A DNA stretch of 64,000 nucleotides from an uncultured Bacteroidales bacterium (GCA_964411555.1 CAYPLF010000005.1:8013-72012), one strand, 5' to 3'. Positions 1 through 64,000 are shown, counted from the first letter of the stretch. The notes: generated by a model not told the origin, from the sequence alone. Program-made: numbers and translations.

Positions 1-646
1 TCTGCGTAAAGCGACCTTTCGTGTGCTGGTTGTTTTGAAGAATACGGGGTGCATAGCGTAGAGCATCCTTGAGGTCAACGATCAACGAGTCAATTACATC
101 TTCCTGGTTTAACTGAGGAATAAAGTAATTTTGAGTATCATCAATACTGGGTACAGTTGTATAAGGCACCTTGTCAAATGCACGTACCAAGTAGAAGTAT
201 GATAAAGCGCGAATGGCTTTTACTTCTGCTTCCATGGAATGTAAGCTTGCTATAGTGAAGTTTTCATCCCTGGTTTGGGCCATCGGAGCATAATACAATA
301 AGGTGTTGCACATATTGATGACATCATAGAAGCAACTCCATTTTGTATATTCATGAGTAGGTTCAATTTCCTGAAGAAGAACATCATTGACTGTTTCGCC
401 AGAACTTTCTCCTTCTACTACATTATCTGAGCGCATCTCACCATAGGCAAAGATTCGTGTAATGTATTCATTTTTAATCATTCCTCTGTAACAGGCAGCC
501 ATGACAGATTGAACGTCAGATTCTGTTTGCCAAAACTCAGGTAGAAGAATTTCACCTTCCGGACGCACATCTAGCCAGTCTGAACAACTTGTGGCACCAA
601 TCAATAAAGCAATTGATGATGCTATTATGGATATTTTAATTTTCAT
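1..646 (-). CDS. RagB/SusD family nutrient-uptake lipoprotein (3'-truncated by window edge; not in ORF track)
   Basis: Hand translation from ATG 646: MKIKISIIASSIALLIGATSCSDWLDVRPEGE (lipobox ATSC), then GEMRSDN, W..FYDVINICN, AEVKAIRALSYFYLVRAFDKVP; directly after SusC. Confidence 0.92.
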   Translation of the reverse strand, partial: MKIKISIIASSIALLIGATSCSDWLDVRPEGEILLPEFWQTESDVQSVMAACYRGMIKNEYITRIFAYGEMRSDNVVEGESSGETVNDVLLQEIEPTHEYTKWSCFYDVINMCNTLLYYAPMAQTRDENFTIASLHSMEAEVKAIRALSYFYLVRAFDKVPYTTVPSIDDTQNYFIPQLNQEDVIDSLIVDLKDALRYAPRILQNNQHTKGRFTQ

Positions 647-659
647 TGGTAGAATAGTA

Positions 660-3600: not shown

Positions 3601-3941
3601 AAACCAAGTTCGACTGAAGCATCTTCCATCGTGACATTGATGGTTCTGGTGCTTCCAATGGCAAACGTTTGTTTCGTGAAGCTGAGAAGGTTAAAAGTCA
3701 GCTTGTTGTTGGGGTTTTTAATTTTGATGAGATATTCACCGTCTTCATTAGTGACGGTACCGCTCTGTACACGGTTTGTCGCATCTACTTCACTAACCTG
3801 TACGCCAATTAAGGTCTCACCATTTTTGGCTTTCACGCTACCCTTTACGATAATGGACGAAGATGTTTGTCCCATCGCAAAAGTACACAGTGCAACAAAG
3901 AGCAGTAATGCTATGTTAAATTTGGATTTCATAATGCACAT
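660..3941 (-). CDS. SusC/RagA family TonB-dependent outer membrane transporter
   Basis: Signal peptide, N-terminal extension, plug signature INPDDILEITVLKDAASTAIWGTKGANGVISITTKKG, LQWETTSQFNFG, C-terminal TFGLTVGL; alternative start 3932. Confidence 0.96.
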   Translation of the reverse strand: MCIMKSKFNIALLLFVALCTFAMGQTSSSIIVKGSVKAKNGETLIGVQVSEVDATNRVQSGTVTNEDGEYLIKIKNPNNKLTFNLLSFTKQTFAIGSTRTINVTMEDASVELGLVEIRGEKKFGDDGFSIPQREISIAAQTLNFGEIEGLQVGSIDEALQGRIAGLDIVSNSGDPGSGSSMRIRGTSSITGNSEPLLVMNGIPYSVDSDPNFDFVNSSQEQWATMLSINPDDILEITVLKDAASTAIWGTKGANGVISITTKKGAIGPTRIQYTYRLSGTKQPKGLNILNGDDYTMMMKQALFNAEQNEEASNVPELSYDQSFSDYEEFNNNTDWIRAVSRIGVIHDHNLSISGGGDRAQFRISAGFLDNKGTIIGTGTNRITARTSMDYTVSDRLRFSSEFSFSYQKTDNANGSILDIAYRKMPNVSIYEQDLYGNDTEKYYVIKRTSVLNSAQRDLQNPVALAMLGKSDNTSYSLQPVLRLTYDLTDPDKNYLRYTASFSFNVSNSKSASFTPWEVSNVAWDNSRVNAASNSASQNSGINVDNSLSWQPRFSTRDHSLVVSINQRMNTSDGGSQNVSSYGISSRTSHDATQEAYLNSIGSGRSSSRGVSLSGRFNYSYKQKYVLSGTLNRSGSNKFGEGKRFGYFPGLSAKWIISDEPFMDFARGIVSDLSIRPSWGLTGREPSGSYLHFSRYTAYDKYIDMQAIRPVSLRLSNLQWETTSQFNFGADLRLFDNKLNVEWNTYFKRTSNMIFSNYAIPQTSGFASISNINAGTMDNKGYELNFNASRLIKYGKFSADFNMNFSNGMNKIIEIDESILRTYNKDYDFKNQTYMTRLETGHSYGSIYGFKYLGVYKYDKYIPVEQEEAPVARDKQGRVIVDEWGNGLPMTFAYGTTQQYKFRGGDAMYEDVNKDGTIDELDIIYLGNCNPLISGGFGTSLRYKDLSCNMFFNYRIGNKVVNQARMNAESMYGYDNQSIAVNWRWRKDGDDTPIPRALYQAGFNSLGSSRYVEDASFVRFKYIQLNYAIPTAKLKPYKIERVSLYLNINNIAVFTKYTGVDPEVGGSAGMGNVAKDNSKTPRTRDLTFGLTVGL

Positions 3942-3943
3942 AT

Positions 3944-31697: not shown

Positions 31698-33650
31698 TTA
31701 GAGCTGCTCGTCTATCATCTTGATTTTCTTGTAGATGATGTCGCGTTCTTCCTTCAATGCCTCAATCTTTTTGGTCATATCGGCAAGGAGCGAATTTCCG
31801 GAAGACTTTGACGTTGTGAAAAAGCCAATGTTGTTTTCGGCTGTCTTGATCTCGTTTGACAAGCTGTCGAATTGACGCAGCAGGCGTTCTCTTTCGTGGA
31901 GCACTTTGCCCTGCCCTTTGTTTGACATGTCTTCCAAATTGCTTTGGAACTTGTTGAGTCGATGCGATTCCTTCGAAACATGAAGAATGTCCCCGAAAGC
32001 AGAAAGGCTTTCGTGCCATTGTATGTAGATGGCATCTTTTTCCTTAAACGGAACATGCCCAATGGCATTCCACTTTCCTATCAACTCCTGAACCGTGGAC
32101 TGCAACTCATCTTTTGGCATATCCTTTGAAAGGGCTTGCAATTGGGATATCAGTTCCTTCTTGGCTTCAAGGTTCTTAGCTTCTTCATTTTTCTGAGAGG
32201 GTGCGTTCTTTTCCTTTTGCTCAAAGAAATAGTCGCAGGCTTTGATGAATCGCTTCCAGATAGCATCGGAAACCTTCTTGGGAACGGGGCCTATGGTTTT
32301 CCATTCTTTTTGAATCTGGATGAGTGTCTCCGCCGTCGCCTTCCAATCTGTGCTCTCTTTTAACGCTTCCGCCTTCTCACACAGTTGTTTTTTCTTTTCA
32401 AGGTTTTGGTTCAATACGTCCTTTGCAGCTTTATAAAATTCGCTTTTTTGCTGGAAAAAAGCATCGCAAGCTGCCCTGAATCGTTCAAATATTTTATTGT
32501 TTACCTTTTTTGGAGCAAAGCCTATGGTTTTCCATTGTTCCTGAAGTTGGAGTATTTCTGTGGTTTTTTCATCCCAGGTTTTGTAAGTAGTCAACTGTGT
32601 CAAATCAACAGCCTCGACCTTCTCGCAAATCGCAGTTTTCAGTGCTAGATTTTCCGATTCGGCAGACTTCAACCGTTCAAAGAACTGTTGGTGGTTTTTA
32701 TTGATGATGCCGGATGCATTTTTAAACCGATTCCAGGTATCTTCACGGTATTCCCTTGCCACCGGACCAGTTTCACGCCATTCTTCGTGGAGTTTCTGCA
32801 GTTGCCTGAACGCAACTACCACGTCGGGTTCCTCTGCCAAACGTTCTGCGCTTTCGCACAGGTTTGTTTTGATTTCCAGGTTTTTCTTGAAATCGTATTC
32901 GCGAAACTCGTTATTGATTTTGAGCAGATCGTAAAAACGTTCTACCTGAATCTGGTAATTTTTCCACAGTTCGTTAACCTGTTCCTGTGGTACATTTCCG
33001 GTATCTTTCCATGCTTGTTGCAACCGCCTGAACTCAGGTAATGTGCGTCCGATATCTTCAGTGCTTTCCGTGAGCGACTTGATGCTTTCTATGAGTTGAA
33101 GTTTTTTAGTCAGGTTATCCTGACGTTGCTTTTCCAATTCTGCAACTTGTCCGGCCCTTTTTTCCTTCCAACTGTTCAGTAATTCTTTAAAAGTTGCTTC
33201 CAATGGGTCAACAACATCTTCTTGAACAATATCTGTAGCTTTCTCTGTTTCAGAAATGGCCTTCGTTTCGACTTCTGCTTTTTGAATCCGGTAGAAGGTT
33301 TGTTTTAGATGGTCAATGCGTTCCTTCTTGTCGTTACCAGGCAAATCAATCAATTGTTTTAGTTGGTCGATTACTTCTTGCCGGGTTGTTGGAGCTGGCA
33401 AAACGGCTTCTTCCAAGAGGTTTTCCTGTGTAGCGATTGCAACTTCTTCCAACAAGCTTTCCTGTGTGGTGATTGCAACTTCATCCAACGGGCTTTCCTG
33501 CGAAGCAGCAGCTACTTCTTCTAACGGTGTTTCCTGTGTTTCAGGTAACTGTTCAGGCATTTCTGCTGTCATGGCTGCAGCATCTGTGAGAGTTTCTTCC
33601 ACGCCTGTTTCCTGAATCAGGTCGTTGGTTTCTTTGTTGTCCATATTCAT
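31698..33650 (-). CDS. DUF349 domain-containing helical repeat protein
   Basis: Repeated K..LCE.AE.L...W......L..LQ..WK.IG.VP....IW.RF..A.D.FF units. Confidence 0.92.
   Translation of the reverse strand: MNMDNKETNDLIQETGVEETLTDAAAMTAEMPEQLPETQETPLEEVAAASQESPLDEVAITTQESLLEEVAIATQENLLEEAVLPAPTTRQEVIDQLKQLIDLPGNDKKERIDHLKQTFYRIQKAEVETKAISETEKATDIVQEDVVDPLEATFKELLNSWKEKRAGQVAELEKQRQDNLTKKLQLIESIKSLTESTEDIGRTLPEFRRLQQAWKDTGNVPQEQVNELWKNYQIQVERFYDLLKINNEFREYDFKKNLEIKTNLCESAERLAEEPDVVVAFRQLQKLHEEWRETGPVAREYREDTWNRFKNASGIINKNHQQFFERLKSAESENLALKTAICEKVEAVDLTQLTTYKTWDEKTTEILQLQEQWKTIGFAPKKVNNKIFERFRAACDAFFQQKSEFYKAAKDVLNQNLEKKKQLCEKAEALKESTDWKATAETLIQIQKEWKTIGPVPKKVSDAIWKRFIKACDYFFEQKEKNAPSQKNEEAKNLEAKKELISQLQALSKDMPKDELQSTVQELIGKWNAIGHVPFKEKDAIYIQWHESLSAFGDILHVSKESHRLNKFQSNLEDMSNKGQGKVLHERERLLRQFDSLSNEIKTAENNIGFFTTSKSSGNSLLADMTKKIEALKEERDIIYKKIKMIDEQL
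33407..33539 (-). repeat. Four imperfect 36-nt tandem units (QExxLEEVAxxx) in the DUF349 N-terminus
   Basis: TTCCTG recurs at 33423, 33459, 33495, 33531. Confidence 0.8.
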
Positions 33651-35633: not shown

Positions 35634-36623
35634 ATGCCGCTGATAAAAAAAATACTTCAAGTTGTCGTACCCCTTGCACTGGCTGCTATCTTGTTTTGGC
35701 TGGTATACAGGAATATGGACTTTGGTAAATTGGCCGATGTATTAAAACGTGGTCTCCATTACGACTGGTTGTTTGTTGCTGTTGCGCTCAGTGCACTCAG
35801 CAATGTGTTGCGTGGATTGAGGTGGCGTCAATTGTTGGAACCTGTTTCTGATCAAAGTAAAAACTCGACAGCTATTCTTGCTGTTTTTGTCAGTTATGCG
35901 GTCAATTTATTGTTTCCCCGTGCCGGTGAAGTGGCACGTTGCGGCATTGTTGCCAAAAACGATGGGGTATCTTTTTCCCGTTCACTGGGAACCGTCATTT
36001 CAGAACGAATTCTTGATGCCTGTTGTCTGCTACTGATAGCCATTTTTGCGATTCTGTTGCAACTTGGTTTTTTTGCTGACTTTTTTCAACAGAATCCAGA
36101 CTCGTTGAACAAGTTGAAAGACACAATTACCTCACCCACTCTTTGGGGTAGCCTGCTGTTGCTTGTTGTTGTTTACTTTTTAATCAGGAGGCAAGTCAAG
36201 AAGAGTCGATTATACGAAAAAACGAAAGCCTTCCTTGTGAAGATGTGGGAAGGGATGAAAACAATTGGAACACTGAGACGTCCCTTGTTGTTTGTCGGTT
36301 ATTCGTTGTTGATTTGGGTTGTTTATTTCCTGATGTTTTATGTAGGTCGCTATTTCTTTCCCTTTGAAGTAAACCTGGGTGTTGTTCCCATGCTCAGCGC
36401 TTTCGTTATGGGAAGCCTTGGTGTCCTGGCACCGGTTCAGGGGGGGATTGGTGCCTATCATTTTATGGTAATCTATGCGCTGACATTTTATGGTATAAAC
36501 GAGCCGGAAGCTGCCATCTTTGCACTGGTGGTTCATGGGGTTCAGACCGTACAGTCTTTGGTTTTTGGTTTTTTGGCATGGGGATGGATTTCTGTAAGGA
36601 AGCGTTCAAAAACTTTAGTCTAA
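35634..36623 (+). CDS. Lysylphosphatidylglycerol synthase TM-region (flippase-like) membrane protein
   Basis: RGLRWRQLL, NLLFPRAGEVARC, GTVISERILD, APVQGGIGAYH; start reassigned to ATG 35634. Confidence 0.85.
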   Translation: MPLIKKILQVVVPLALAAILFWLVYRNMDFGKLADVLKRGLHYDWLFVAVALSALSNVLRGLRWRQLLEPVSDQSKNSTAILAVFVSYAVNLLFPRAGEVARCGIVAKNDGVSFSRSLGTVISERILDACCLLLIAIFAILLQLGFFADFFQQNPDSLNKLKDTITSPTLWGSLLLLVVVYFLIRRQVKKSRLYEKTKAFLVKMWEGMKTIGTLRRPLLFVGYSLLIWVVYFLMFYVGRYFFPFEVNLGVVPMLSAFVMGSLGVLAPVQGGIGAYHFMVIYALTFYGINEPEAAIFALVVHGVQTVQSLVFGFLAWGWISVRKRSKTLV

Positions 36624-36676: not shown

Positions 36677-36684
36677 TACCTTTG
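36677..36684 (+). promoter_or_regulatory. -7 promoter box of the CotH-DUF2490-VTC-DUF4956 operon
   Basis: TACCTTTG 21 nt before ATG 36706; TTTC at 36654-57 in the -33 position. Confidence 0.55.
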
Positions 36685-36705
36685 TGTCAACCTTATCGAT
36701 CAACC

Positions 36706-38445
36706 ATGAACAGATACCTTTTCTTTGTCAGCCTACTCTTCTTGACTTCTCTCGTTGCATGCGAAGACGACGGTGTCTATTCTCCACCAAGGTACGATGG
36801 CGACGATACCACGTATGTTGTATCGGAACCTTCTGATGGCTCGATTGAAACGGGTGTATCAGGGACACCTCCTTACTTCATGAGTGAAGAGGCTGTGGCG
36901 CATCGATTGAAAATGGGCGTAAAGGAACAAGCGGGTTTATATTCATTGAATACCATTAAACACATTGAGTTGACCTTCTCCGTTATCAACTGGGAAGAAC
37001 AACTAAGAGCCCTTGCCGATGGTGATAGCGAATTGGACGCAACTATAACCTATGAAGGGTATGCATATCCGGCAAAGGTTGGTGTCAGGATAAAAGGAAC
37101 CCTTACGAACTCGTCGGCTAAACCGTCCTATTACATTGCGATAGATGCATATGATGATAATCAACTGTTGAACGGGTATTATACATTGGCCCTGAACAGT
37201 ATTGAGGACGATACATCCTGCTTGCGCGAAGCCATATACCGCCAGTGCATCCGACGCTACATACCGGCACCTCAGGTCAATTTTGTCAATCTTCGCATCA
37301 ATGACGTTGATCAGGGACTCTATATCAATACGGAGCACCTGAATGCATCTTTCATTAATGAGTGGTTTGTATCAACCAATGGATCGAGATGGAGAGCAGA
37401 GCCATCGAAAAATGCGGATTCTGCAAAAGTAGGAGCTTACGGCACAGGTTATTGCGGGTTGAATTACCTGGGAGAAACGGCTGATGATTATGCTCTCTAT
37501 TACGATTTAAAAAACAACCCTTCACAAGTTGAACCATTGGACGACGTGATTGCTGTTTGCCGCATTCTTGAAAAAACCGAACCCGATTCATTGGAAGCAG
37601 TCATTCGAAAAGAATTGGACCTGGACAGGACATTATGGTTCCTGGCCTGTGAAAACATATTTACCGATGAAGATGGGTATGTTAACAAGGGCGGAACCGA
37701 TTACTACCTGTTTTGGAACAAAGAAACGGGTTTGCTGACGCCTCTTGAGTACGACGGCAAAGACACCTTCCATGAACTGAATTTGGGTTGGGATCCTTTC
37801 TATCATGCAGACGATGCGCGTTTTCCCTTATTGAACAAATTATTGGCAGTGCCGGCCATTCGTCAACGCTACCTGGCCCATTACCGCACCATATTAAACG
37901 AAGTATACAATCCTGAATTCCTCAACCCATTGATTGATGGTTTTGTTGCAAAAATTGATTCTGCAGTATCGGCAGATCCGAGGAAAACGTATACCCACAG
38001 TGATTTTACAGCAGCGGTTGGTGCAATGAAACAAACCATAGCGCAACGTTCTGCTTTTTTAAACAACCACGATTCCATTAAGGTGAGTGGAATGACCATC
38101 AATGCGGCTGAATGGTCTGTCGACGACATTGCATGGAAGCAACCGGTTTCCACTGATACGGTAAAAGTTACGGCAACCATTGGGGGGACAGGCCATGCCA
38201 GTAGTGTTTTCCTGTGTGCGGGTACAGGTATGTTCGGTGGATTCAAACGATTGCAAATGTTTGATACCGGAGATTATGGTGACACCGTGGCCGGTGACGG
38301 CGTTTTTACGGCACTCATCAATCCACAACAATCCGGAGTCCGTGTACGCTTTTACATTGAGGCGGTTCGGGGAAATGCTGTCAGAACCCGTTCATACATG
38401 CCGGCTGGAGCTGAACACGATGTATTCACGTATGTAGTGCAATGA
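36706..38445 (+). CDS. CotH kinase family lipoprotein
   Basis: Lipobox LVAC followed by EDD; VGVRIKG, KPSY.I, LALN...D.SCLRE, GLYINTE, ENIF.DEDGY...DYYLF, PLEYD; C-terminal GDTVAGDGVFTA domain; start reassigned to ATG 36706. Confidence 0.85.
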   Translation: MNRYLFFVSLLFLTSLVACEDDGVYSPPRYDGDDTTYVVSEPSDGSIETGVSGTPPYFMSEEAVAHRLKMGVKEQAGLYSLNTIKHIELTFSVINWEEQLRALADGDSELDATITYEGYAYPAKVGVRIKGTLTNSSAKPSYYIAIDAYDDNQLLNGYYTLALNSIEDDTSCLREAIYRQCIRRYIPAPQVNFVNLRINDVDQGLYINTEHLNASFINEWFVSTNGSRWRAEPSKNADSAKVGAYGTGYCGLNYLGETADDYALYYDLKNNPSQVEPLDDVIAVCRILEKTEPDSLEAVIRKELDLDRTLWFLACENIFTDEDGYVNKGGTDYYLFWNKETGLLTPLEYDGKDTFHELNLGWDPFYHADDARFPLLNKLLAVPAIRQRYLAHYRTILNEVYNPEFLNPLIDGFVAKIDSAVSADPRKTYTHSDFTAAVGAMKQTIAQRSAFLNNHDSIKVSGMTINAAEWSVDDIAWKQPVSTDTVKVTATIGGTGHASSVFLCAGTGMFGGFKRLQMFDTGDYGDTVAGDGVFTALINPQQSGVRVRFYIEAVRGNAVRTRSYMPAGAEHDVFTYVVQ

Positions 38446-39152
38446 AAGTGATGGTAATAGATAAGTCAAAATTGGTCATTTTTCTGATGCTTTGTTCGGT
38501 GTGCTCAACCCTGGCAGCTCAGGAAACAGACTTTGGAATTTGGTCAAGTGCAGAAGTCAGTAAGAAATTCCAAAACGGATTAAAACTAAGTATTGAAGAA
38601 GATTTCCGTTTACGAAACGACCTAAGGACAATAGATAAGTTTGAATCATCGATTGGATTGAGTTACGGCCTTACAACTTTTTTAGATGCAGGCATATCGT
38701 ACTCATTGATCAATTATTTTCATCCAAGGGATGATTATCATGAACACAACTTCTTTGAAACGAGGCATCGGCTCAATGTATTTGGAGAAGGAGAATGTAA
38801 GCTCGGTCGCTTTGATATTACCCTCAGAGAACGGTTGCAAGGCACGTACAGGGTGCTTGATTCACTTTCTACCGCAAAGACCAATCCAAAATATGTGTTA
38901 CGATCAAAATTAGGGGCATCGTATAACATTAAAGGGTTACCATTGGAACCGTTTGCCTTTCTCGAATTCTTCAACGCAATAGAACGGGGTTCGAATTTAG
39001 AGTTTAAAAGCTATCGATGGAGTACAGGTTTGAAGTACACCTACAACAAGAAACTATCGGTGAAACTGGGTTATTTATTTACTTCCGACGTGGACAGCGA
39101 TGAGGCAGATCGTTCAAATGTGCTGACCATAGGATTGGGCTATAAATTGTAA
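38442..39152 (+). CDS. DUF2490-type outer membrane beta-barrel protein
   Basis: Signal peptide, D.GIWSS.EV.KK, E.R.R, alternating beta-strands, terminal IGLGYKL; start overlaps CotH stop (ATGA). Confidence 0.75.
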   Translation: MKVMVIDKSKLVIFLMLCSVCSTLAAQETDFGIWSSAEVSKKFQNGLKLSIEEDFRLRNDLRTIDKFESSIGLSYGLTTFLDAGISYSLINYFHPRDDYHEHNFFETRHRLNVFGEGECKLGRFDITLRERLQGTYRVLDSLSTAKTNPKYVLRSKLGASYNIKGLPLEPFAFLEFFNAIERGSNLEFKSYRWSTGLKYTYNKKLSVKLGYLFTSDVDSDEADRSNVLTIGLGYKL

Positions 39153-39158
39153 GTAACG

Positions 39159-39947
39159 TTGACTGAAAATAGTTCAACCATTCCACTGCAGGCACTTTGT
39201 GATCAATTGAAGCCCATTACGTTGGCAGAGATGAAAAGTGTTCGCCTGATGAACCGGATAGACACCAAATATCTGGCTCCAATTACTTTATTGCCTAAAT
39301 TGCTTACATTTGCAGCATCTGATTTTCGCATTCAACACGTGAACAACCATTCAATCAGTAGCTATTCTACTCAGTACTACGACACTCAGAACCTTGAGAT
39401 GTATACTAACCATCACAATGGCAATCTGCCCCGTCAAAAAGTACGATTGAGAACGTATGTTGATTCCAACCTGCACTTTCTGGAAATAAAGAAAAAAAGC
39501 AATAAAGGACGTACCGATAAAGTCAGGATGGAGTTGACCAAAAAACCCGGTTTGTGTGGCATGTTGGAGCCCGAATGGCACGACTTTATAGCATCAAACT
39601 CACCTTACGATGAACTTGGATTGTTACCTCATATAAATACCAACTTTGATCGCATCACGTTAGTGAATTATAACCTATCTGAACGCATTACCATCGACAC
39701 AAACCTTCAATTCATAAATTGCCGAAATGGAAAGCAAGTGAGCGTACCTGAACTGATGATCATTGAGTTAAAACAAGACGGCAGGGTACATTCAAGGATG
39801 AAAGATTTCTTATTCGCTTGCAGAATACGCCCCAAAGGTATCAGTAAATATTGTCTTGGAACTGTTATGACAGACCCAACAGCAAAAAGCAATCGCTTCA
39901 GAGTAAAAATCAGATACATCAATAAATTAATCAATACCGAAAAATGA
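39159..39947 (+). CDS. VTC-domain (polyphosphate polymerase-like, CYTH/TTM fold) protein
   Basis: MNRIDTKY, YYDT, RQKVRLRTY, FLEIKKK, RITID, IIELK, ISKY; TTG start. Confidence 0.9.
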   Translation: MTENSSTIPLQALCDQLKPITLAEMKSVRLMNRIDTKYLAPITLLPKLLTFAASDFRIQHVNNHSISSYSTQYYDTQNLEMYTNHHNGNLPRQKVRLRTYVDSNLHFLEIKKKSNKGRTDKVRMELTKKPGLCGMLEPEWHDFIASNSPYDELGLLPHINTNFDRITLVNYNLSERITIDTNLQFINCRNGKQVSVPELMIIELKQDGRVHSRMKDFLFACRIRPKGISKYCLGTVMTDPTAKSNRFRVKIRYINKLINTEK

Positions 39948-40681
39948 TATCAACCGATCAGATTCTTAATAGCCAGTTACTTTCATCAGAAGTAATTGAC
40001 GATTCTCCTGCCCCAAATTTCTTTGACATTCCTCTTTTTGATGGTCCAAGTCTAACACAACTGCTGATTCGTTTTGGTTTCAACCTGTTGATTTGCTGGA
40101 TTATCATTCAATTCTTCTATTACAAAAAGAGTGGACGGAGGGATTATTATTTCACCTTCCTGTTGTTCAGTGTCACCATTTTCCTACTGATTTTCTTATT
40201 GGACAACGTGAAATTACAAATGGGTTTTGCCTTGGGCTTGTTTGCCATTTTCGGCATGATTCGCTATCGGACCGAAACCGTGCCCATCCGGGAAATGACC
40301 TACCTGTTTGAAATCATCGGCATCTCGGTCATCAATGGCCTGGCCATGACGGTAAGTTATACGGAAATTGCGGTGACAAACGTGTTGTTCTTGTTGGTTA
40401 CCTGGATACTGGAGAACAACAAGATACTCAAACACACGGCCTCAAAGATTATCCTGTACGATAAGATTCAGAATGTAGTTCCCGAACGTGAGAAGGAATT
40501 GATTGAAGATTTAAAGGCACGTACAGGTCTCAATATTCTCAGGGTAGAAGTAGGAAACATTGACTTCCTTCGTGATATAGCTTATATAAAGGTTTTTTAT
40601 AAGCCTCTTGGTGAGGAGCTTACAGCTAACGCTACATCCAAGCAACTCAAACCGGAAGATTTTAAACCGGAAAACTTCTGA
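39944..40681 (+). CDS. DUF4956 domain inner membrane protein
   Basis: About 5 TM segments, GFALGLFAIFGMIRYRT, REMTYLF, C-terminal soluble domain with LKARTG; start overlaps VTC stop (ATGA). Confidence 0.9.
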   Translation: MISTDQILNSQLLSSEVIDDSPAPNFFDIPLFDGPSLTQLLIRFGFNLLICWIIIQFFYYKKSGRRDYYFTFLLFSVTIFLLIFLLDNVKLQMGFALGLFAIFGMIRYRTETVPIREMTYLFEIIGISVINGLAMTVSYTEIAVTNVLFLLVTWILENNKILKHTASKIILYDKIQNVVPEREKELIEDLKARTGLNILRVEVGNIDFLRDIAYIKVFYKPLGEELTANATSKQLKPEDFKPENF

Positions 40682-40727
40682 TTTTTACACTTTTTGAGCG
40701 AATAAACCATTGGTTGTGTTATTTTTG

Positions 40728-40761
40728 TGTACCACCTGAATATAAGGTGGTACATTTTTTT
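40728..40761 (+). terminator. Intrinsic terminator-like hairpin between DUF4956 and pepD
   Basis: Perfect 10-bp stem TGTACCACCT/AGGTGGTACA, 7-nt loop, T7. Confidence 0.7.
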
Positions 40762-40779
40762 CACAAAAAAACCGGAACA

Positions 40780-57049: not shown

Positions 57050-57436
57050 TCATGAAGCATGAGCCTCATATCCATCGCCCAGGGCTATGTCATGTAAAGC
57101 AAAATTCAATACATTATAGGCGCTAAAACGAGTCAGGTAACCCGAAGCACCCAAGTGGAAAGCACGTTGGGCGCTTTTACCCTCAGGCTGCTCCGTAAAG
57201 ATGAGTACACGCGTCTGTTTTTTTGTACTTCTCGTCCGTTCCAGCACATCAAGCCCCTTTACTCCGTTGGCATCTTCTTCAAGGATGACCAAGTCATAAC
57301 TGCCTGATTCTATTTTTGTCAGGGCATCGTCCCCGTTGTTTATTTCATCAACCTGTGCTTCCATAGGTAAGGAAGAAAGTAAGTTCTTTACATTATCCCG
57401 GATAATGGAAAGTGTATCGGCGATTAAAATTTTCAT
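57050..57436 (-). CDS. Single-domain atypical (pseudo-)receiver protein
   Basis: CheY-like pattern ILIAD...YDLVIL...GLD.L...RVLIF...GASGYL with phosphoacceptor Asp replaced by Glu53 and Lys by Arg103. Confidence 0.8.
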   Translation of the reverse strand: MKILIADTLSIIRDNVKNLLSSLPMEAQVDEINNGDDALTKIESGSYDLVILEEDANGVKGLDVLERTRSTKKQTRVLIFTEQPEGKSAQRAFHLGASGYLTRFSAYNVLNFALHDIALGDGYEAHAS

Positions 57437-57491
57437 AGTTGTGTGGTTATAAGGTAAGTGTGGTTACGAATGTGGTTAGAGAACAGCGAAA

Positions 57492-57998
57492 TCAATTGTA
57501 ATTGACAGTTACCGGGAAGGGGGTGGCAGAGGTGTATTCTCCCAGTTGTTGATCACCGGTGACAACCAGTGTAGCTCCAACATAAACGTTCTTGCTGCCA
57601 TCGGCCAAGTCGCTAAAACCGTTTGGAGTGCTGGTGAAATCGGTCACCATCATGTTCTTGCTGCCGTTGTTGATGATAACCGGAGTGGTTGGCAACGAGA
57701 TGGAGAACGTGGCACCTTGGTATCCCTTTACGGCGAAGGATGCAACGGAAACATCACCGCCATCCATCAATTCAACATTTCCGGAGGCTGAGCGGTTCCT
57801 GCTTTCAGGGGATAAGGTAACAGCACCTGCACCCGATTCAACGGATACATTCCCAAAATTCATGTCCTGTACCTTGGCTATCGAGATAGGCGATACGATG
57901 GTAACAGAAACATGTCCAGTGGCTGTAGTTTGTGAAAACGCGCTGAATGCAAACGTCGCCAGTGCGGCTGCCGTGAGCAATGTAACTTTCGCTTTCAT
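57492..57998 (-). CDS. DUF4402 domain secreted protein (pilin-like beta-sandwich)
   Basis: Signal peptide AFS-Q; ATGHVSVTIVSPISI.K..DMNFG, YVGATL.V...Q..GEY...F.VTVNYN; start reassigned to ATG 57998. Confidence 0.8.
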   Translation of the reverse strand: MKAKVTLLTAAALATFAFSAFSQTTATGHVSVTIVSPISIAKVQDMNFGNVSVESGAGAVTLSPESRNRSASGNVELMDGGDVSVASFAVKGYQGATFSISLPTTPVIINNGSKNMMVTDFTSTPNGFSDLADGSKNVYVGATLVVTGDQQLGEYTSATPFPVTVNYN

Positions 57999-58028
57999 GA
58001 CCTTTGGTTTTAGGGGGTTTTTGTACTC

Positions 58029-58036
58029 CAAAGGTA
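58029..58036 (-). promoter_or_regulatory. -7 promoter box of the DUF4402 gene
   Basis: Minus strand TACCTTTG; no TTTG at the -33 position. Confidence 0.55.
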
Positions 58037-58102
58037 TGGCGGGGGCGATCCCTTTTTTGAAAGGGATTGTGGTGTCTGCCGAGTGTGTTTACCGAAAATT
58101 GA

Positions 58103-58120
58103 TGTAAGGGAAACCCTACA
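58103..58120. promoter_or_regulatory. GacA/UvrY-type binding box upstream of the DUF4402 gene
   Basis: TGTAAG-GGAAAC-CCTACA, one mismatch to TGTAAG-N6-CTTACA, next to a UvrY-like regulator gene. Confidence 0.5.
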
Positions 58121-58140
58121 AAGAGAAGTGCGATGCTTAT

Positions 58141-58770
58141 TTATTCAATCAGCTTGTTTTTAAGCGCATACATGGTAAGGTCGGCATTTGTTTTCAGGTC
58201 CATTTTCTCGAGCAGCCTGGCTCTGTAGGTGCTTACCGTTTTGTCAGAGAGAAAAAGCGTGTGGGAGATTTCGGTGACAGATTTTCCTCTGGCCAACATG
58301 ACCATGATTTGAAATTCCCGCTCAGAAAGAGACTCGTGCGGTAACTTGTCATCCCGCTCCGAATCGTGAAAAATAAGTCGTTCTGCCAGCGCGGCAGAAA
58401 CGTACCTGCCCCCCGCCGCAATCTTTCGGATGGCAGCAGCCAGTTCATCGAATGCGCTGTCTTTCGACAGGTAACCGGACGCTCCCAGTTTGAAAGCACG
58501 GATGGCGTATTGTTCTTGCGGGTAAAAGCTGAAGATAAGCACCCTGGCGGTTATGTTTCTGTCTTTCATGCGCTGCAGGATGTCCAAACCCGTCATGCCC
58601 GGCATGGAGATGTCAAGAATAACGATGTCGTAGGGCGTAGAACAAATCTTTGAGAAAGCCTCATTCCCGTCAGAAACTTCTTCAATCAACTTCACCTCGG
58701 GTAATCCGCGAACGATTTGCTTGACTCCTTCGCGAACAATGGCGTGGTCATCGGCTATGAGTATGTTCAT
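58141..58770 (-). CDS. NarL/FixJ (UvrY/GacA-like) response regulator
   Basis: ILIADDH, VILDISMPG, GASGYLSK, LSEREFQIM...GKSVTEIS..L.LSDKTVSTYR. Confidence 0.95.
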   Translation of the reverse strand: MNILIADDHAIVREGVKQIVRGLPEVKLIEEVSDGNEAFSKICSTPYDIVILDISMPGMTGLDILQRMKDRNITARVLIFSFYPQEQYAIRAFKLGASGYLSKDSAFDELAAAIRKIAAGGRYVSAALAERLIFHDSERDDKLPHESLSEREFQIMVMLARGKSVTEISHTLFLSDKTVSTYRARLLEKMDLKTNADLTMYALKNKLIE

Positions 58771-59864
58771 GATTCAGACTTGTTGGGTATATTGACAGTA
58801 ACAAGCGTTCCCTTTCCATTGTTTGATGAAATCTCAACTGTTCCACCACATCGGCTGATACGTTGACGCATACCGATGATACCGAACGATTTTCCCGAAG
58901 TTACTTTCTCTGAAGCAATGCCGACTCCGTTGTCCCCAATGGTTAATTGAGTATGAGGTGTATACGAGAGTCGAATGTCTACGGTGGTAGCGTTGGCGTG
59001 ACGAATGATGTTTGTCATGGATTCCTGAAAAACACGGAATAGAGCCAAATTTATATCGGGTTGGATTGCCTCTGTTTCTTCGAGATCAAGGTCACAAATA
59101 ATACCGGTCCGTTCGCTGAACTCCCGGCAATACCATTCGATGGCTGCAACCAAACCCAGGTCATCCAGCAAACCGGGATGCAACTCGGAGGAAATACGCT
59201 GCACCTTTCGAATGACATCGTTCGTCATGTGCATCATACGGTCTATCTTTTCTTCTGCAGCCTCTGCGTTCATCCTATTTTGACGCAGCCAACTCAAGTC
59301 CATTTTCAGCGCAGTCATAGCCTGTCCCAATTCATCGTGCACCTGCAATGAAATGGAAGAACGCTCCTCCTCAATGGCCATGATGAGGTAATCGTTCATC
59401 TGTTCAAGCTGCTTTTTTGCTTCGAGCAAATTAGCCTCTGAAGCCATGAGCTTCTCCGTGTTTTCCACCACGCGGTTTTTTTGCCAGTGTAATTCCAAAA
59501 AAACCTTGATCTTGCTGGTCAGGATGATTTCGTTGACCGGTTTGATGATGTAATCTACAGCCCCGGCCTTGTATCCTTCAAGAATTCGCGCGTTTTCCGG
59601 AAAATTGGCCGTGAGAAAAATAATGGGCACCTTGTTGTCAACCCTGTCTTTGTTTAGCAACATGGCCAGTTCGTAACCGTTCATGATGGGCATTTGAACA
59701 TCCAAAATGGCCAGTGACAGGTCTACATCCTTGGTGAGTGCCAATGCCTCTTCCCCCGAAAGGGCTTTAATCAGATTGGCCTGGATATTCCTCAGAATTA
59801 TTTCCAGGTAAAGTATGTTCGTGGAATTGTCATCAACGATGAGGACATTCGGCAGGGCTTGCAT
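58767..59864 (-). CDS. Cytoplasmic REC-HisKA_3-HATPase histidine kinase
   Basis: VLIVDD, AILDVQMP, GAVDYIIKP; H-box VHDELGQAMT, QESMTNIIRHA, DNGVG, FGIIGMRQR; no TM segment. Confidence 0.92.
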   Translation of the reverse strand: MQALPNVLIVDDNSTNILYLEIILRNIQANLIKALSGEEALALTKDVDLSLAILDVQMPIMNGYELAMLLNKDRVDNKVPIIFLTANFPENARILEGYKAGAVDYIIKPVNEIILTSKIKVFLELHWQKNRVVENTEKLMASEANLLEAKKQLEQMNDYLIMAIEEERSSISLQVHDELGQAMTALKMDLSWLRQNRMNAEAAEEKIDRMMHMTNDVIRKVQRISSELHPGLLDDLGLVAAIEWYCREFSERTGIICDLDLEETEAIQPDINLALFRVFQESMTNIIRHANATTVDIRLSYTPHTQLTIGDNGVGIASEKVTSGKSFGIIGMRQRISRCGGTVEISSNNGKGTLVTVNIPNKSES

Positions 59865-60049
59865 GGTAAAGTGGTGTTTGGCTAAACAAAGATAAAAAAA
59901 CTATGAAATAAACGAACATAAAGTGGCTGGTATTTCGCATATATAACAGATTGAGCAAAAAAACTTGAAAAAAGTCGATTATAAAACACAAAAATTTGAT
60001 TGGAAAGTAAATTTGGCGTATCTTCACGAAGCATTATACATGATTGCGT

Positions 60050-60880
60050 ATGCCTAAAAATAGAATTTTAGTCGTTGATGACAACCCTCATGCAGTTTCG
60101 TTAGTATCCATTGTCCTATCACGAAAGATTGACTGCGAATTATTGGTTGCCTTTGACGGGTCATCTGCCATTAAACAAGCAAGGGAAACAAATCCTGATC
60201 TGATTCTGATGGATTGGCAAATGCCCGGCATTGACGGCATACGGGCTGTTGAGATTCTTAAGGAAGATCCGGAAACGGCCATCATCCCCGTCATCATGAT
60301 TACCTGCTATTCAGAGAAGGATTATTTGGAAAAGGCCTTTCAGGCTGGAGTGATCGATTTTATCCGGAAACCGTTCGACAACATCGAATTGTTGGCACGT
60401 GTCAAATCGGTGTTGGCAATCAGGGATTATTACGGCAAGATGATCGAAGCACAAAAACGCGAGGCTGTGGCCATGTCTATGCAGAAAGTGCAAAGCGAGG
60501 AATTTCGTAACAAGGTGGTCGGAGACCTTAAACAGCTCAAGGCTCAGTGCGCAGCTGATCCGTCCAAAACCCTCGACAATATCGAACGGATGATCCGTGA
60601 CATTAATTCCGAAGGAACCGCTTCATCCTGGAATCAAATCGAGCAACGCATCAAGGATACCGATCAACAGTTCTTCCGCAGCATCGGGGAAAAGCACCCC
60701 AATCTGACTCCGGCAGAAATGAAGCTGTGCCTGTACCTGCGTATGAACTTGTCCACCAAGGAAATATCCGGTCTGACCTTCCAAACCTACGATAGCGTGC
60801 GTATTGCCCGTACCCGCTTACGGAAGAAACTGAATTTGGGCAACGACGAGAATCTGGTGGGGTATATTTCTACCTTTTAG
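60050..60880 (+). CDS. Response regulator: REC plus C-terminal LuxR-like HTH
   Basis: ILVVDD, ILMDWQMPG, FIRKPF; NLTPAEMKLCLYLRMNLSTKEIS...SVRIARTRLRKKL; start at ATG 60050. Confidence 0.88.
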   Translation: MPKNRILVVDDNPHAVSLVSIVLSRKIDCELLVAFDGSSAIKQARETNPDLILMDWQMPGIDGIRAVEILKEDPETAIIPVIMITCYSEKDYLEKAFQAGVIDFIRKPFDNIELLARVKSVLAIRDYYGKMIEAQKREAVAMSMQKVQSEEFRNKVVGDLKQLKAQCAADPSKTLDNIERMIRDINSEGTASSWNQIEQRIKDTDQQFFRSIGEKHPNLTPAEMKLCLYLRMNLSTKEISGLTFQTYDSVRIARTRLRKKLNLGNDENLVGYISTF

Positions 60881-60967
60881 CGGTTTTCCGGTTTTCATTG
60901 GTCGTCTGCTTCCTTTTTGTATCCTTCTCATGCTCCTTGGTGTTACTTTTTGCTCTATAAAAGCAGC

Positions 60968-60997
60968 TTTGTCATTGACTTTTGGCATGTATCTTTG
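60968..60997 (+). promoter_or_regulatory. Primary-sigma promoter of the large surface protein gene
   Basis: TTTG(60968-71)-N18-TATCTTTG(60990-97). Confidence 0.55.
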
Positions 60998-61022
60998 AAA
61001 CTGCTAAATAAGGCCTTTTTGT

Positions 61023-64000
61023 ATGTTGGCCATAATAGGAATGATAGTGACGGTTTATTACTTTCATCATACTACATCTCATCCAAAGACAACAAGAAAA
61101 ACCGCTTGGTTTCGTGTGTTGTTGTTCAGCTTGTTGATTGGGCTTCAGGTGGTTCCTGTATTTGGAGCTGCCTCTTGGGACTATACAACAAACACTGGCT
61201 CATTTGGCACTACTTATGATTGGATTGATTGCTCATCGGGTAGCAACATTGTTTCCGGTGATAATGAAGCAGCCAATCTGGCCTGGCCCTTTAATTTCGA
61301 GTGTTATGATGACGTATACACTACAGCAAATAACCTGAGTGTCTGTACGAATGGTTTTATTCGACTGGATGGTTCTGCCAATACAAATGGGTCTACAGCC
61401 AGCGGTTTTCCATCTTGGAATTGGTCCGGGAGAAATTACGGTGAGCTGGGACAAATCGTTGCGCTTGGGGTATATAACAATATGATAGGCGACAACGGAG
61501 GTTGGGTACGATCTCTTGTAACAGGGACAGCTCCGAACCGTATTCTGACAATTGAATACAACAATCTTGAAATCGATTACAATGATAACGGGTATGCCAG
61601 CGTGCAGGTAAGTTTCTACGAAACTTCAAACAAAATCGTCTTAAAATTTAAATCCGAGAATATCAATAGGAGTTCTGTAGAAATGGGTCTCTACAGTGGG
61701 AATAACGATTACTATTCGTATTGGCAACAAATCAATGGTGCAACCGCCAATACTTGGATGGAGTTTTCTAAACCGGTTGTGGTAACCTCCACGTCGGGCA
61801 CTGCAAAAGCAAAATACGACAACCTTGGAGCCGCATTTACAGCCGTTAATAATGGAACTCATCAAGGTGTTATCAACATTACATTGGTAGGCAACACCAC
61901 AGAAACAACTACTGCATCGTTGAACCAGAGCGGCTCAGGCAGCGCCAACTACACTTCGTTGACTGTTAAACCCATCGTTTCCGGTGTGACGGTCTCCGGC
62001 TCCGTTGACGGAGGTTTGGTCAACTTGAACGGTGCCGACAACGTGGTGGTCGATGGACGGCTCAATGCCGCAGGAATACAGCCTGATCTCACGTTTATCA
62101 ATAACTCTACAGGAAGCAGTACTTATACCATGGGCTTTACCAACAGTGCCCAAGGTAATACTGTCAAGTTTGTCAACATCAAGGGTGGGGGCGGCTCAGC
62201 CAGCAATGGTACTGTATTTTTCGGTACAGGAACCAACACCAACAATACGCTGGCTTATTGCCGTGTTACCAACAACGGAACCCGACGCATCAACGCCATC
62301 TATTCACAAGGAGGAACCACAACAGGTACACAGCTGACTGGCAATGCCGTTTACGATACCTGGAGTACAACCGCTTCTTCGTATGGTGTAAATGCTTCTA
62401 CGGGAACCTCGGGATGGAATGTGGCCAACAACAGCTTCTACGAAACCAGTAACTTTCAGCCATCAGCCGCTACAACGTATTCAGCCATTTACCTAAACAA
62501 CACGGGCGGGGTGTACACCCTTACCAACAACTACATTGGCGGGCAGGATTCCTTGTGTGGTGGAACCGCACTGCGGTTTGGTGTTGACGGAACGGTTACG
62601 ACCAATATGTTCCGACCGATTTACATCAACGTAGGATCAAGCACTACGTCCGTACAGGGAAACACAATCAAGAACATTGCCCACAGAAGTAGTAATGCAA
62701 CACCCTTCTATGGGTATTGCATCGATGGCGGGCGTGTAGATTTGGGAACAGTGGAAGGCAATGTGTTGGGTGACACCACAGGCACCGGTTCAATTACGTT
62801 GACGGGAACCTACGCCTCAACACTTTCTTATGGCATATACATTGACGGAACATCGACGGTGAATGTGAACAACAATTTGATTGGGTCAATCACCACGTTC
62901 AACAGTGCTACCAATGCGCACAGCCTTCATGCCATCAGCAAATCAAACACTTCAGGAGCTGTTGTAATATCAGGGAACTATATTGGAAGCGAAGGAACAA
63001 CCATGAATATCCAGACGAGTTCTACCTCTACAGGGAATAACCAAGTTCTATATGGCATTTATACAGAAGGAACCACCACAACCGGAATCAGTAACAACAG
63101 GGTGGCAAATTTAAAAAACAGCACAACCGAAACCAACAGAAGCTCAAAAATATATGGAATATATGCCCGGGATGGAGGGACTAATTGTGGAAGCAATACC
63201 ATTACCGGAAACACAGTGCATGATTTGACCACAGACGGGGCTGCCAGTGGCCAAAACTACGCCAACGTGTCAATGACAGGTATCCATCTGAATTGTATGA
63301 GCGGTAGCCAGTCCATTAAAAACAATACCGTATACAATCTGATCAGCACCACTACCCAGAAAGTGGAATTCTACGGCATCATGTTGAACGGAACGTTGAC
63401 GGGAAACGACACCATCTCCGGCAATTTTGTGTATGGCTTCAAAATGACGTCTGCAAATACCAGTTGTTACCTGCATGGCATTTCAACCATTAACGGTACA
63501 GCGACCGGAGGCGTGCTGACCATCAGTAACAATGTTGTCTTTTTGGGCGATGAAGTGACTACCGGTTGCAGCATATTCGGCATCCTTAAGTATACAAACA
63601 AGCAAACGAACATATATCACAACACCGTCCATTTGGGGGGTACTGTGGTTGATGGAAGTGGAATCTACTCCTACTCATTGAGGGACAGGACAGATGGGAC
63701 GCCTTTTGCCCGTGAAGTCAAGAACAATATCTTCTATAATACCCGTTCGGGTGGGGGATCAAACAACTCCATCTATTTTCAAACCACCGGAAATCTAACC
63801 ATTGATTACAACGATTACGGTTGGTCGGGGACTTATTTTGCTGAAGTGGGTAGTACAGGAATCAAGTATGTAACACTCCAGGAATGGTCAACCTACCTAT
63901 CCGGTCAGGATTCACACAGCTTGACCGTAGACCCGATATTTGACAACATGGGTGGAAATAATGCCACCGATTACAAAACAGGCATAGGTTTGGATGGGGT
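61023..64000 (+). CDS. Large secreted parallel beta-helix repeat surface protein (3'-truncated; not in ORF track)
   Basis: Hand translation is open from ATG 61023 (or 61041) to the window end; hydrophobic signal VLLFSLLIGLQVVPVFG; N-terminal PFNF..Y...SVCTNGFI domain; many I.GN.I/I.NN.V...YGI repeats; DYNDY...LQEW...DSHSL..DP cap. Confidence 0.85.
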   Translation, partial: MLAIIGMIVTVYYFHHTTSHPKTTRKTAWFRVLLFSLLIGLQVVPVFGAASWDYTTNTGSFGTTYDWIDCSSGSNIVSGDNEAANLAWPFNFECYDDVYTTANNLSVCTNGFIRLDGSANTNGSTASGFPSWNWSGRNYGELGQIVALGVYNNMIGDNGGWVRSLVTGTAPNRILTIEYNNLEIDYNDNGYASVQVSFYETSNKIVLKFKSENINRSSVEMGLYSGNNDYYSYWQQINGATANTWMEFSKPVVVTSTSGTAKAKYDNLGAAFTAVNNGTHQGVINITLVGNTTETTTASLNQSGSGSANYTSLTVKPIVSGVTVSGSVDGGLVNLNGADNVVVDGRLNAAGIQPDLTFINNSTGSSTYTMGFTNSAQGNTVKFVNIKGGGGSASNGTVFFGTGTNTNNTLAYCRVTNNGTRRINAIYSQGGTTTGTQLTGNAVYDTWSTTASSYGVNASTGTSGWNVANNSFYETSNFQPSAATTYSAIYLNNTGGVYTLTNNYIGGQDSLCGGTALRFGVDGTVTTNMFRPIYINVGSSTTSVQGNTIKNIAHRSSNATPFYGYCIDGGRVDLGTVEGNVLGDTTGTGSITLTGTYASTLSYGIYIDGTSTVNVNNNLIGSITTFNSATNAHSLHAISKSNTSGAVVISGNYIGSEGTTMNIQTSSTSTGNNQVLYGIYTEGTTTTGISNNRVANLKNSTTETNRSSKIYGIYARDGGTNCGSNTITGNTVHDLTTDGAASGQNYANVSMTGIHLNCMSGSQSIKNNTVYNLISTTTQKVEFYGIMLNGTLTGNDTISGNFVYGFKMTSANTSCYLHGISTINGTATGGVLTISNNVVFLGDEVTTGCSIFGILKYTNKQTNIYHNTVHLGGTVVDGSGIYSYSLRDRTDGTPFAREVKNNIFYNTRSGGGSNNSIYFQTTGNLTIDYNDYGWSGTYFAEVGSTGIKYVTLQEWSTYLSGQDSHSLTVDPIFDNMGGNNATDYKTGIGLDG

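Follow-up and report, generated by a model that had tools for sequence, protein, structure and literature searches.

Could a polyphosphate polymerase like that of the yeast vacuole be built into the envelope of a bacterium and, if so, with what partners? PPK1 and PPK2 provide the standard bacterial route to polyphosphate (polyP). Reviews of the field map VTC domains across eukaryotes only, with bacterial synthesis via PPK1 (e.g., PMC10657179). The question is raised by a stretch of 64,000 nucleotides from an uncultured Bacteroidales bacterium (GCA_964411555.1 CAYPLF010000005.1:8013-72012; the whole stretch is here called the window), in which four open reading frames (ORFs), all on the + strand and spanning 36706-40681 by ORF calling, encode a CotH-family lipoprotein, a DUF2490 beta-barrel, a VTC-domain protein and a DUF4956 membrane protein. 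An original prediction, made from the DNA alone, took them for a system of polyP synthesis, export and surface phosphorylation. The analysis described here shows the module to be real and widespread, with VTC and DUF4956 as its conserved core and CotH as a rare accessory; its tentatively predicted function joins a polymerase of the Vtc4 type to a membrane protein unrelated to that of yeast and to a route through the envelope.

The Pfam matches of all four proteins exceed gathering cut-offs, and that of the VTC protein (104.8 bits against a cut-off of 23) covers positions 1-231 of a 235-position model. Searches of the PDB with its sequence, and with a Bacteroidales VTC profile, did not find Vtc4, so the link to Vtc4 needed Pfam together with a structure model compared by Foldseek, and hhalign. 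The AlphaFold model, from a 29-sequence alignment, has a mean local confidence (pLDDT) of 91 and a global one (pTM) of 0.88. Its top 13 Foldseek matches in the PDB are Vtc4, Vtc3 and Vtc2 (E 2e-12 to 2e-10), the best being yeast Vtc4 (3G3R/8I6V_E, E ~2e-12, TM ~0.6), and other tunnel enzymes, namely YgiF, CYTH 'adenylate cyclases' and thiamine triphosphatase, rank below these (YgiF and CYTH at E 4e-9 or worse).

Does the fold carry the residues that a polymerase needs? An electron cryomicroscopy (cryo-EM) study of Vtc4 gives as ligands of Mn-triphosphate K200, R264, R266, K281, Y359, R361, E426, S457 and K458, and finds that K458 alone separates active Vtc4 from inactive Vtc2 and Vtc3, which have Ile or Leu there. 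The reference used for comparison, Vtc4 188-481, was checked against chain E of PDB 8I6V and is 100% identical to it. Alignment by hhalign to the family profile equates K37 with K200, R96 with R264, R98 with R266, K111 with K281, R165 with R361 and R176 with R373. E203 was equated with E426, and S229-K230 with S457-K458, by motif (IIELK/VLEVK; PKGISKYCLG/PKFSKFIHG) and by strand-helix-loop-helix order, the C-terminal third, which the program left unaligned, being mapped by eye. Local pairwise alignment restricted to the C-terminal parts had offered K243-R246 as the equivalent of S457-K458; it was rejected, and S229-K230 preferred, because of the PK(G)xSK[YF]xxG motif, the order of secondary structure and the Pfam boundary at residue 235. 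With this mapping eight of the nine triphosphate/Mn ligands are kept, the polymerase-specific Lys (K230, for K458) included, and the mapped residues are invariant across 29 homologues. The basic tunnel motifs to which the original prediction had pointed are all to be found in the protein (RQKVRLRTY at 92-100, LEIKKK at 108-113, IIELK at 201-205 and SKY at 229-231), and its expectation of retained Vtc4-type catalytic residues holds at the level of sequence. A signal peptide is absent, as it is from 82 of 83 homologues. The protein is therefore best described as a predicted cytoplasmic, Vtc4-like polyP polymerase, whose activity we infer from active site and model.

The partner whose start codon overlaps the VTC stop codon is of a different kind. 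An AlphaFold model of the DUF4956 protein, of moderate confidence (pLDDT 70), has five long transmembrane (TM) helices, in keeping with the roughly five that had been predicted, followed by a C-terminal beta-alpha-beta-beta domain. The family is compact (1,887 clusters at 50% identity). Among 129 representatives clustered at 50%, whose median identity to the window's DUF4956 is 39%, there is a conserved core, GLFAxF...RYRT...(R)EMTYLF, two arginines of which are kept in 98-99%, and in the same Bacteroidales genomes DUF4956 is 60-90% identical where VTC is 45-60%. Basic loops, KKSGRRD and RYRTETVPIRE, indicate that the N-terminus is out and the C-terminus in. A single ORF of 460 residues, DUF4956::DUF2490, is present as 36 sequence variants in many contigs (e.g., L180 8001-9383, of the P0369/P0511 cluster), and directly after its DUF4956 C-terminal domain it has an intact internal Met and signal peptide, which gives independent support for a cytoplasmic DUF4956 C-terminus; the ORF yields either a precursor that is cleaved or two proteins. 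Among the 50 Foldseek matches listed for DUF4956 there is no VTC chain. In the absence of a fold match to the membrane domain of Vtc1, Vtc3 or Vtc4, the 'split VTC machine' of the original prediction becomes one of analogy and not of homology: on the model, DUF4956 is not a homologue of the yeast channel, and the resemblance is functional. A relationship to MgtC/SapB, proposed in the literature for the Streptococcus intermedius DUF4956 protein, was also considered. There is no MgtC Pfam match for DUF4956, and comparison of its profile with E. coli YhiD (MgtC family) gave an hhalign probability of 0.1%, a weak test in view of the narrowness of the DUF4956 profile; the relationship is left unsupported by it.

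How tightly are these genes bound to each other? The cotH stop overlaps the DUF2490 start as ATGA (junction GTGCAATGAAAG), the DUF2490 stop is separated from the VTC start by 6 nt (TAA-gtaacg-TTG), and the VTC stop overlaps the DUF4956 start, again as ATGA (junction GAAAAATGATAT), so that the co-orientation, the two overlaps and the short gap that had been described can all be read directly. Relatives of VTC occur at at least 587 loci in a species-representative genome collection, the best 80 all being from Bacteroidales or nearby Bacteroidota. A VTC-anchored census, made with hidden Markov models built from the loci and counting contiguous same-strand neighbours in 81 non-redundant sources, found DUF4956 at 73 of the 81 VTC loci and DUF2490 at 69. 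A secreted repeat protein of ~140 residues (weakly DUF2963/MORN-like) is at 62, Cthe_2159 beta-helix proteins, mostly lipoproteins, at 24, a CarboxypepD_reg-like lipoprotein at 20 and CotH at 3. The commonest order is small protein, VTC, DUF4956, DUF2490; the order in the window (CotH, DUF2490, VTC, DUF4956) is less frequent and limited to the window's lineage, where the flanking genes are also the same. The conserved core is VTC plus DUF4956, and CotH is a rare accessory. The adjacency of VTC and DUF4956, extending to several phyla (it is also seen in Deinococcus, Alphaproteobacteria and Streptomyces) and to one fused ORF, bears out the co-occurrence that had been anticipated. Dozens of contigs with no relation to each other have these families side by side, in several gene orders, and their clustering is far beyond chance. 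That CotH is in 3 of 81 modules means, on the other hand, that use of polyP by CotH cannot be the general function, and this element of the original prediction is weakened.

The fused ORF just mentioned (P0469) is VTC::DUF4956, with the tunnel domain before the membrane domain as in Vtc4. It and another singleton, P0399 (DUF4956::CotH), are weak evidence, as a single indel at overlapping stop and start codons could create them. A 772-residue 'CotH+DUF2490 fusion' (P0155) was rejected as a Rosetta stone, since in it remnants of DUF4956 and DUF2490 are read through into a CotH whose own lipobox is still there. Long ORFs of this read-through kind, at L085 8001-10319 and L097 142-2586, resemble decayed or rearranged copies of the module. 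The ~140-residue repeat protein (L012 9519-9965; L036 9476-9883; L001 12443-12871), the commonest extra member, is absent from the window.

The third component, DUF2490, is well matched to its family (88 bits for PF10677, with weak OMP_b-brl and PorV tails besides). About 12 amphipathic strands are discernible, with an alternating hydrophobic pattern in an alignment of 76 family members. The family has 15 conserved basic positions and 5 conserved acidic ones, a median net charge of +8, and conserved R-x-R pairs out of phase with the lipid-facing residues. In TCDB, DUF2490 is classed as a putative porin family, 1.B.81 (PMC4827864). Independently, a 2026 preprint found that 51 of 60 members have Sec/SPI signals and that their models are barrels of the outer membrane. 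As had been expected, DUF2490 was seen in diderm contexts alone; in other diderms other barrels take its place. On a plasmid of Pseudoalteromonas sp. CuT4-3 (L170 6279-8657) the order is lamin-tail-domain (LTD) protein, DUF4956, Porin_O_P, the last a phosphate-selective porin (E 2e-47) starting 2 nt 3' of DUF4956, and a VTC gene is not nearby. A porin-like barrel accompanies DUF4956 at L088, and a contig of 714 kb (L179 6036-13919) has a co-directional run of TPR-YaiO barrel, VTC, DUF4956::CotH and three more CotH paralogues. Among diderms DUF4956 is hardly ever without an outer-membrane barrel beside it, and the selectivity of these barrels, where any is known, is for phosphate anions. Beyond the Bacteroidales there are CotH-VTC-DUF4956 in Deinococcus taeanensis, from which pel genes are absent, and a DUF4956-VTC pair in Streptomyces. 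DUF4956, which is met in addition with just CotH or just a porin, has the look of a hub.

What, then, of the protein at the head of the window's own version? The CotH match (125 bits for PF08757) lies within an ORF whose longest reading is 36682-38445. The likely start is the ATG at 36706, which gives a lipoprotein signal, MNRYLFFVSLLFLTSLVAC, with an LVAC lipobox followed by EDDG, and an identical 579-residue protein (P0121) in the protein collection supports that start. Its C-terminus is a 'choice-of-anchor X' beta domain. PDB 5JD9, Bacillus cereus CotH, was matched at E 1e-6 over residues 106-455, and D323 and D350 align with catalytic D228 and metal-binding D251 of Bacillus subtilis (PMC7821199), the mapping assuming an offset of 4 in the numbering of the 5JD9 chain. 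Both are invariant in 29 CotH homologues, and the window protein is probably an active enzyme.

A lipobox followed by acidic residues, as in EDDG, resembles the surface-export signal of Bacteroidota. Because of this, and since related Bacteroidota CotH proteins bear type IX secretion tails, an extracellular location is likely. The family assignments and the compartments foreseen for the four proteins hold: VTC without signal peptide, DUF4956 with five TM helices, DUF2490 with Sec signal and barrel pattern, and CotH as a lipoprotein. In a CotH-anchored scan of metagenomes, VTC, DUF4956 or DUF2490 is within 3 kb of short lipoprotein-type CotH at 11 of 17 loci, the remainder being mostly on short contigs, with at least six gene orders overall; nearly all the short CotH proteins near module genes have a lipobox followed by acidic residues. 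The long CotH proteins with LTD and type IX secretion domains are usually alone (58 of 63). Cthe_2159 (PF14262) proteins, mostly with lipoboxes, replace CotH in many modules (L001 8319-9995; L180 5280-7190; 22 more loci). Both families also occur in extracellular systems of the cellulosome type, a hint that they may have an extracellular substrate in common.

Parts of this assemblage have been noticed before. Genes for CotH, a 'poly-phosphate polymerase', DUF4956 and DUF4832 were recorded directly beside the pelDEADAFG operons of Gram-positive bacteria, as accessory genes (Whitfield 2020, PMC7112168). For S. intermedius SIR_1594-1592, Pel levels and aggregation both changed when the genes for DUF4956 and CotH were deleted; the authors supposed polyP to stay cytoplasmic, and stated that the synteny was absent outside Pel loci (PMC12345266). 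That 2025 statement is contradicted by the window, by Deinococcus taeanensis and by many metagenome loci. NELoc-2 of Clostridium perfringens lists VTC and CotH genes with, between them, a membrane protein annotated 'tubulin/FtsZ', which may be DUF4956, and in Bacteroides thetaiotaomicron BT3498-99 are annotated DUF4956 and DUF2490. The original prediction knew of no characterisation of the module. As regards bacterial VTC activity this stands, no report having been found in the literature searched, but the trio itself had been described beside the pel operons. These accounts can now be widened and amended: the module is common without Pel, in diderms it has an outer-membrane component, and its core excludes CotH.

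What could such a set of proteins do? The reading preferred, if tentatively, is an envelope-spanning module in which polyP is made by VTC, exported via DUF4956 and given a barrel route to the surface. The cytoplasmic VTC enzyme would polymerise the gamma-phosphate of ATP to polyP at the inner-membrane face. Translationally coupled DUF4956, N-out/C-in and probably oligomeric, would take the chain and pass it to the periplasm, an invariant arginine ring (RYRT) standing at the cytoplasmic end of TM3; this step would mirror that of the yeast vacuolar VTC complex with an unrelated membrane protein, the direction would topologically be as in the vacuole, and the inside-negative membrane potential would help outward movement of polyP. 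The DUF2490 barrel could then offer polyP, or phosphate species derived from it, a way across the outer membrane. Least certain is the last step, in which the CotH lipoprotein would act on or with the product at the cell surface, a place that in most relatives may be taken by Cthe_2159 beta-helix lipoproteins or the small secreted repeat protein. Whether the whole amounts to a trans-envelope polyP synthase-exporter that feeds phosphoanhydride energy to an ATP-free surface, with CotH-type kinases (elsewhere Cthe_2159-type proteins) using polyP as phosphoryl donor or substrate on surface proteins, glycans or matrix, is doubtful, and we consider that extended proposal unlikely.

Several observations weigh against the export proposal. 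The position of Vtc4 Tyr359 is occupied by F163, by hhalign an invariant Phe in the 29 homologues, and according to the cryo-EM study of Vtc4 yeast has less polyP with Y359F. The literature searched contained no report of activity for a bacterial protein with a VTC domain. The best Foldseek match of DUF4956 in the PDB falls short of significance (E 0.07), no solved channel was matched, and the model compared is of moderate confidence. The window's DUF2490 is itself nearly neutral (29 K+R to 28 D+E), and in many DUF2490 models the 2026 preprint describes an Arg/Glu/Tyr network buried in the interior, so that the barrel may be occluded or gated and not open. Pairs of DUF4956 and CotH exist without nearby VTC (L089, L118/L121). 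In S. intermedius the VTC deletion was without aggregation phenotype (PMC12345266), and this silence genuinely counts against a pathway that is simple and linear. To these are added the phosphate-uptake neighbours in other phyla: VTC-DUF4956 adjoins an acid phosphatase and phnDCE in another Deinococcus, in Shinella and Aminobacter DUF4956-VTC is followed by a phytase-like esterase, and in Nitratireductor it lies beside a PiT phosphate transporter and a phytase-like esterase.

Might the flow then be inward? On such an account, the main rival, which is possible though we think it somewhat improbable, the module serves phosphate scavenging and storage: the barrel admits phosphate, pyrophosphate or polyP, the surface proteins capture or process phosphorus substrates, VTC stores polyP in the cytoplasm, and DUF4956 is an anchor and/or a sensor with an ACT-like domain, and not a channel. 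The characterised members of Porin_O_P, OprP and OprO, serve uptake and are induced when cells are starved of phosphate, and the adjacency of Porin_O_P to DUF4956 in Pseudoalteromonas suits this, as do the transporter, esterases, phosphatase and phnDCE just listed. The C-terminal domain of DUF4956 has weak ACT or ferredoxin-like fold matches by Foldseek, appropriate to a ligand sensor, and the S. intermedius authors' view of polyP as cytoplasmic is in the same vein. However, a separate PiT beside DUF4956 suggests that DUF4956 is not itself a phosphate importer, the membrane potential opposes inward transport of a polyanion, and PPK1 already stores bacterial polyP with no membrane partner. Left unexplained are a catalytically intact extracellular kinase, the runs of CotH paralogues behind DUF4956 and the Gram-positive exopolysaccharide link.

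A further account, which we regard as improbable, has the VTC protein as a tunnel metalloenzyme that does not polymerise, such as a tri-/polyphosphatase or a nucleotide-processing enzyme, within a module that has some other envelope task, e.g., regulation or modification of a surface polymer, with DUF4956 as the true hub. The tunnel enzymes characterised from bacteria (YgiF, CYTH proteins) are mostly hydrolases and are likewise among the fold matches; the Tyr359-to-Phe change, the much better conservation of DUF4956 than of VTC, the pairing of DUF4956 with CotH or a porin where VTC is lacking, and the silent deletion in S. intermedius all speak for it. Yet it is Vtc4, and not the hydrolases, that tops the structural matches, membership of the Pfam VTC family is at E 7e-30, and all basic triphosphate ligands, the polymerase-specific Lys and the Mn-binding Glu are kept and invariant. 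That the genes are chance neighbours or share just a promoter, with no common function, is scarcely credible: the upstream LPG_synthase_TM gene and downstream pepD are kept only in the window's own lineage, so that part of the synteny is plain inheritance, but in one phylum after another the families are found side by side, with at least six different gene orders, their stop and start codons overlap and fused ORFs exist.

The features of the module and of its surroundings are collected in the table.

Table. Features of the four-gene module and of other parts of the 64,000-nucleotide window (positions counted from its first nucleotide)
Feature	Position	Strand	Basis or remark
CotH-family atypical kinase, 579 aa	36706..38445	+	Pfam PF08757 E 6e-36; NF041940
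DUF2490 beta-barrel, 236 aa	38442..39152	+	Pfam PF10677 E 8e-25; Sec signal ending LAA|QE
VTC triphosphate-tunnel protein, 262 aa, TTG start	39159..39947	+	Pfam PF09359 E 7e-30
DUF4956 inner-membrane protein, 245 aa	39944..40681	+	Pfam PF16316 E 7e-57
Candidate promoter -7 box TACCTTTG	36677..36684	+	matches Bacteroidota consensus TAnnTTTG; pattern search
Intrinsic terminator	40727..40765	+	GTGTACCACCT-GAATATA-AGGTGGTACAT then TTTTTTCACA
LPG_synthase_TM/flippase-like membrane protein	35634..36623	+	PF03706, TIGR00374; directly upstream of cotH, co-oriented
DUF349-type protein	31698..33650	-	N-terminal acidic near-repeats (…ETPLEEVAAASQESPLDEVAITTQESLLEEVAIATQENLLEE…); family taken from syntenic locus L003
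SusD-like/SusC-like pair and 906-aa lipoprotein	2..6664	-	judged by N-terminal features only
ORF cluster	57050..63998		N-termini resembling response-regulator receiver domains; judged by N-terminal features only

Is the module a transcription unit of its own? The -7 box that had been proposed for it, TACCTTTG, is indeed present, within the 82-nt gap 5' of cotH and 22 nt before its ATG, though the window has many copies of the motif (69 found, 52 expected), and because of this abundance it is weak evidence alone, its position being all that favours a promoter role. The terminator that had been seen after the last gene was also found: a hairpin at 40727-40755, 46 nt past the last stop, has an 11-bp stem with 5 GC pairs and a 7-nt loop, and is followed by TTTTTT. 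The module is flanked by housekeeping genes (rsmA, pepD, enolase and a ribosomal protein operon), with no jump in composition; an FMN_bind gene and the LPG_synthase_TM gene are other neighbours. The latter is retained upstream only in the window's own lineage (L003, L005, L090-L093), and a member of its family adjoins DUF4956-VTC, in divergent orientation, on a Shinella plasmid. As a fifth component it was rejected, its lineage-limited conservation and the single further adjacency in Shinella being insufficient. No Pel or other polysaccharide genes, and no DUF4832 hydrolase, are within 10 kb of the module; Pel families are likewise absent within 10 kb at the Pfam-annotated syntenic locus L003. 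PADLOC defence models matched none of the four proteins.

Why should this matter? A working Vtc4-like polymerase widespread in gut and rumen Bacteroidales would, if true, change the eukaryote-only picture of VTC. If the polymer is exported, three further matters come within reach of experiment: by what means bacteria get polyP out of the cytoplasm, what the phosphoryl donor of secreted CotH kinases is where there is no ATP pool, and what the accessory genes of Gram-positive Pel biofilms do. Bacteroides thetaiotaomicron, with BT3498-99, is a tractable model organism for such work.

How does the module stand beside systems already known? In the Gram-positive Pel accessory cluster CotH, VTC and DUF4956 are also contiguous and CotH is predicted to be secreted; the window differs in having no pel operon or DUF4832 in 10 kb, in adding an outer-membrane barrel and in having CotH as a lipoprotein, and the Pel-linked deletions in S. 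intermedius are so far the only experimental handle on the trio. The Bacillus spore-coat kinase (PDB 5JD9/5JDA) is of the same family as the window's CotH and shares both catalytic aspartates, but it acts inside the mother cell with ATP, while the window protein is predicted to be extracytoplasmic and adds a lipoprotein signal and the C-terminal beta domain. With the phosphate- and pyrophosphate-selective porins OprP and OprO (Porin_O_P) the likeness is that a Porin_O_P takes DUF2490's place after DUF4956 in Pseudoalteromonas and that DUF2490 has conserved arginine pairs phased to the lumen; DUF2490 is however much smaller (~210 mature residues), and beyond the barrel class no relationship in sequence can be detected. 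PPK1 and PPK2 have the same presumed product, polyP from ATP, and an unrelated fold, with no dedicated membrane or envelope partners. The eukaryotic VTC complex (yeast Vtc4/Vtc3/Vtc1; 3G3Q, 7YTJ, 8I6V) provides the best structural match for the tunnel domain, and its Vtc4 has in common with the window protein the basic ligands, a Glu that binds Mn and the pair of Ser and Lys, as well as the obligatory association of the catalytic unit with a membrane protein. Unlike it, the window VTC has no SPX domain (no Pfam match) and a Phe for Tyr359, its catalytic and membrane parts are separate proteins, DUF4956 with 5 TM helices and an alpha/beta domain has no detectable likeness in fold to the 3-TM Vtc domain, and the system belongs to the envelope of a diderm, where a barrel in the outer membrane and a protein at the surface go with it.

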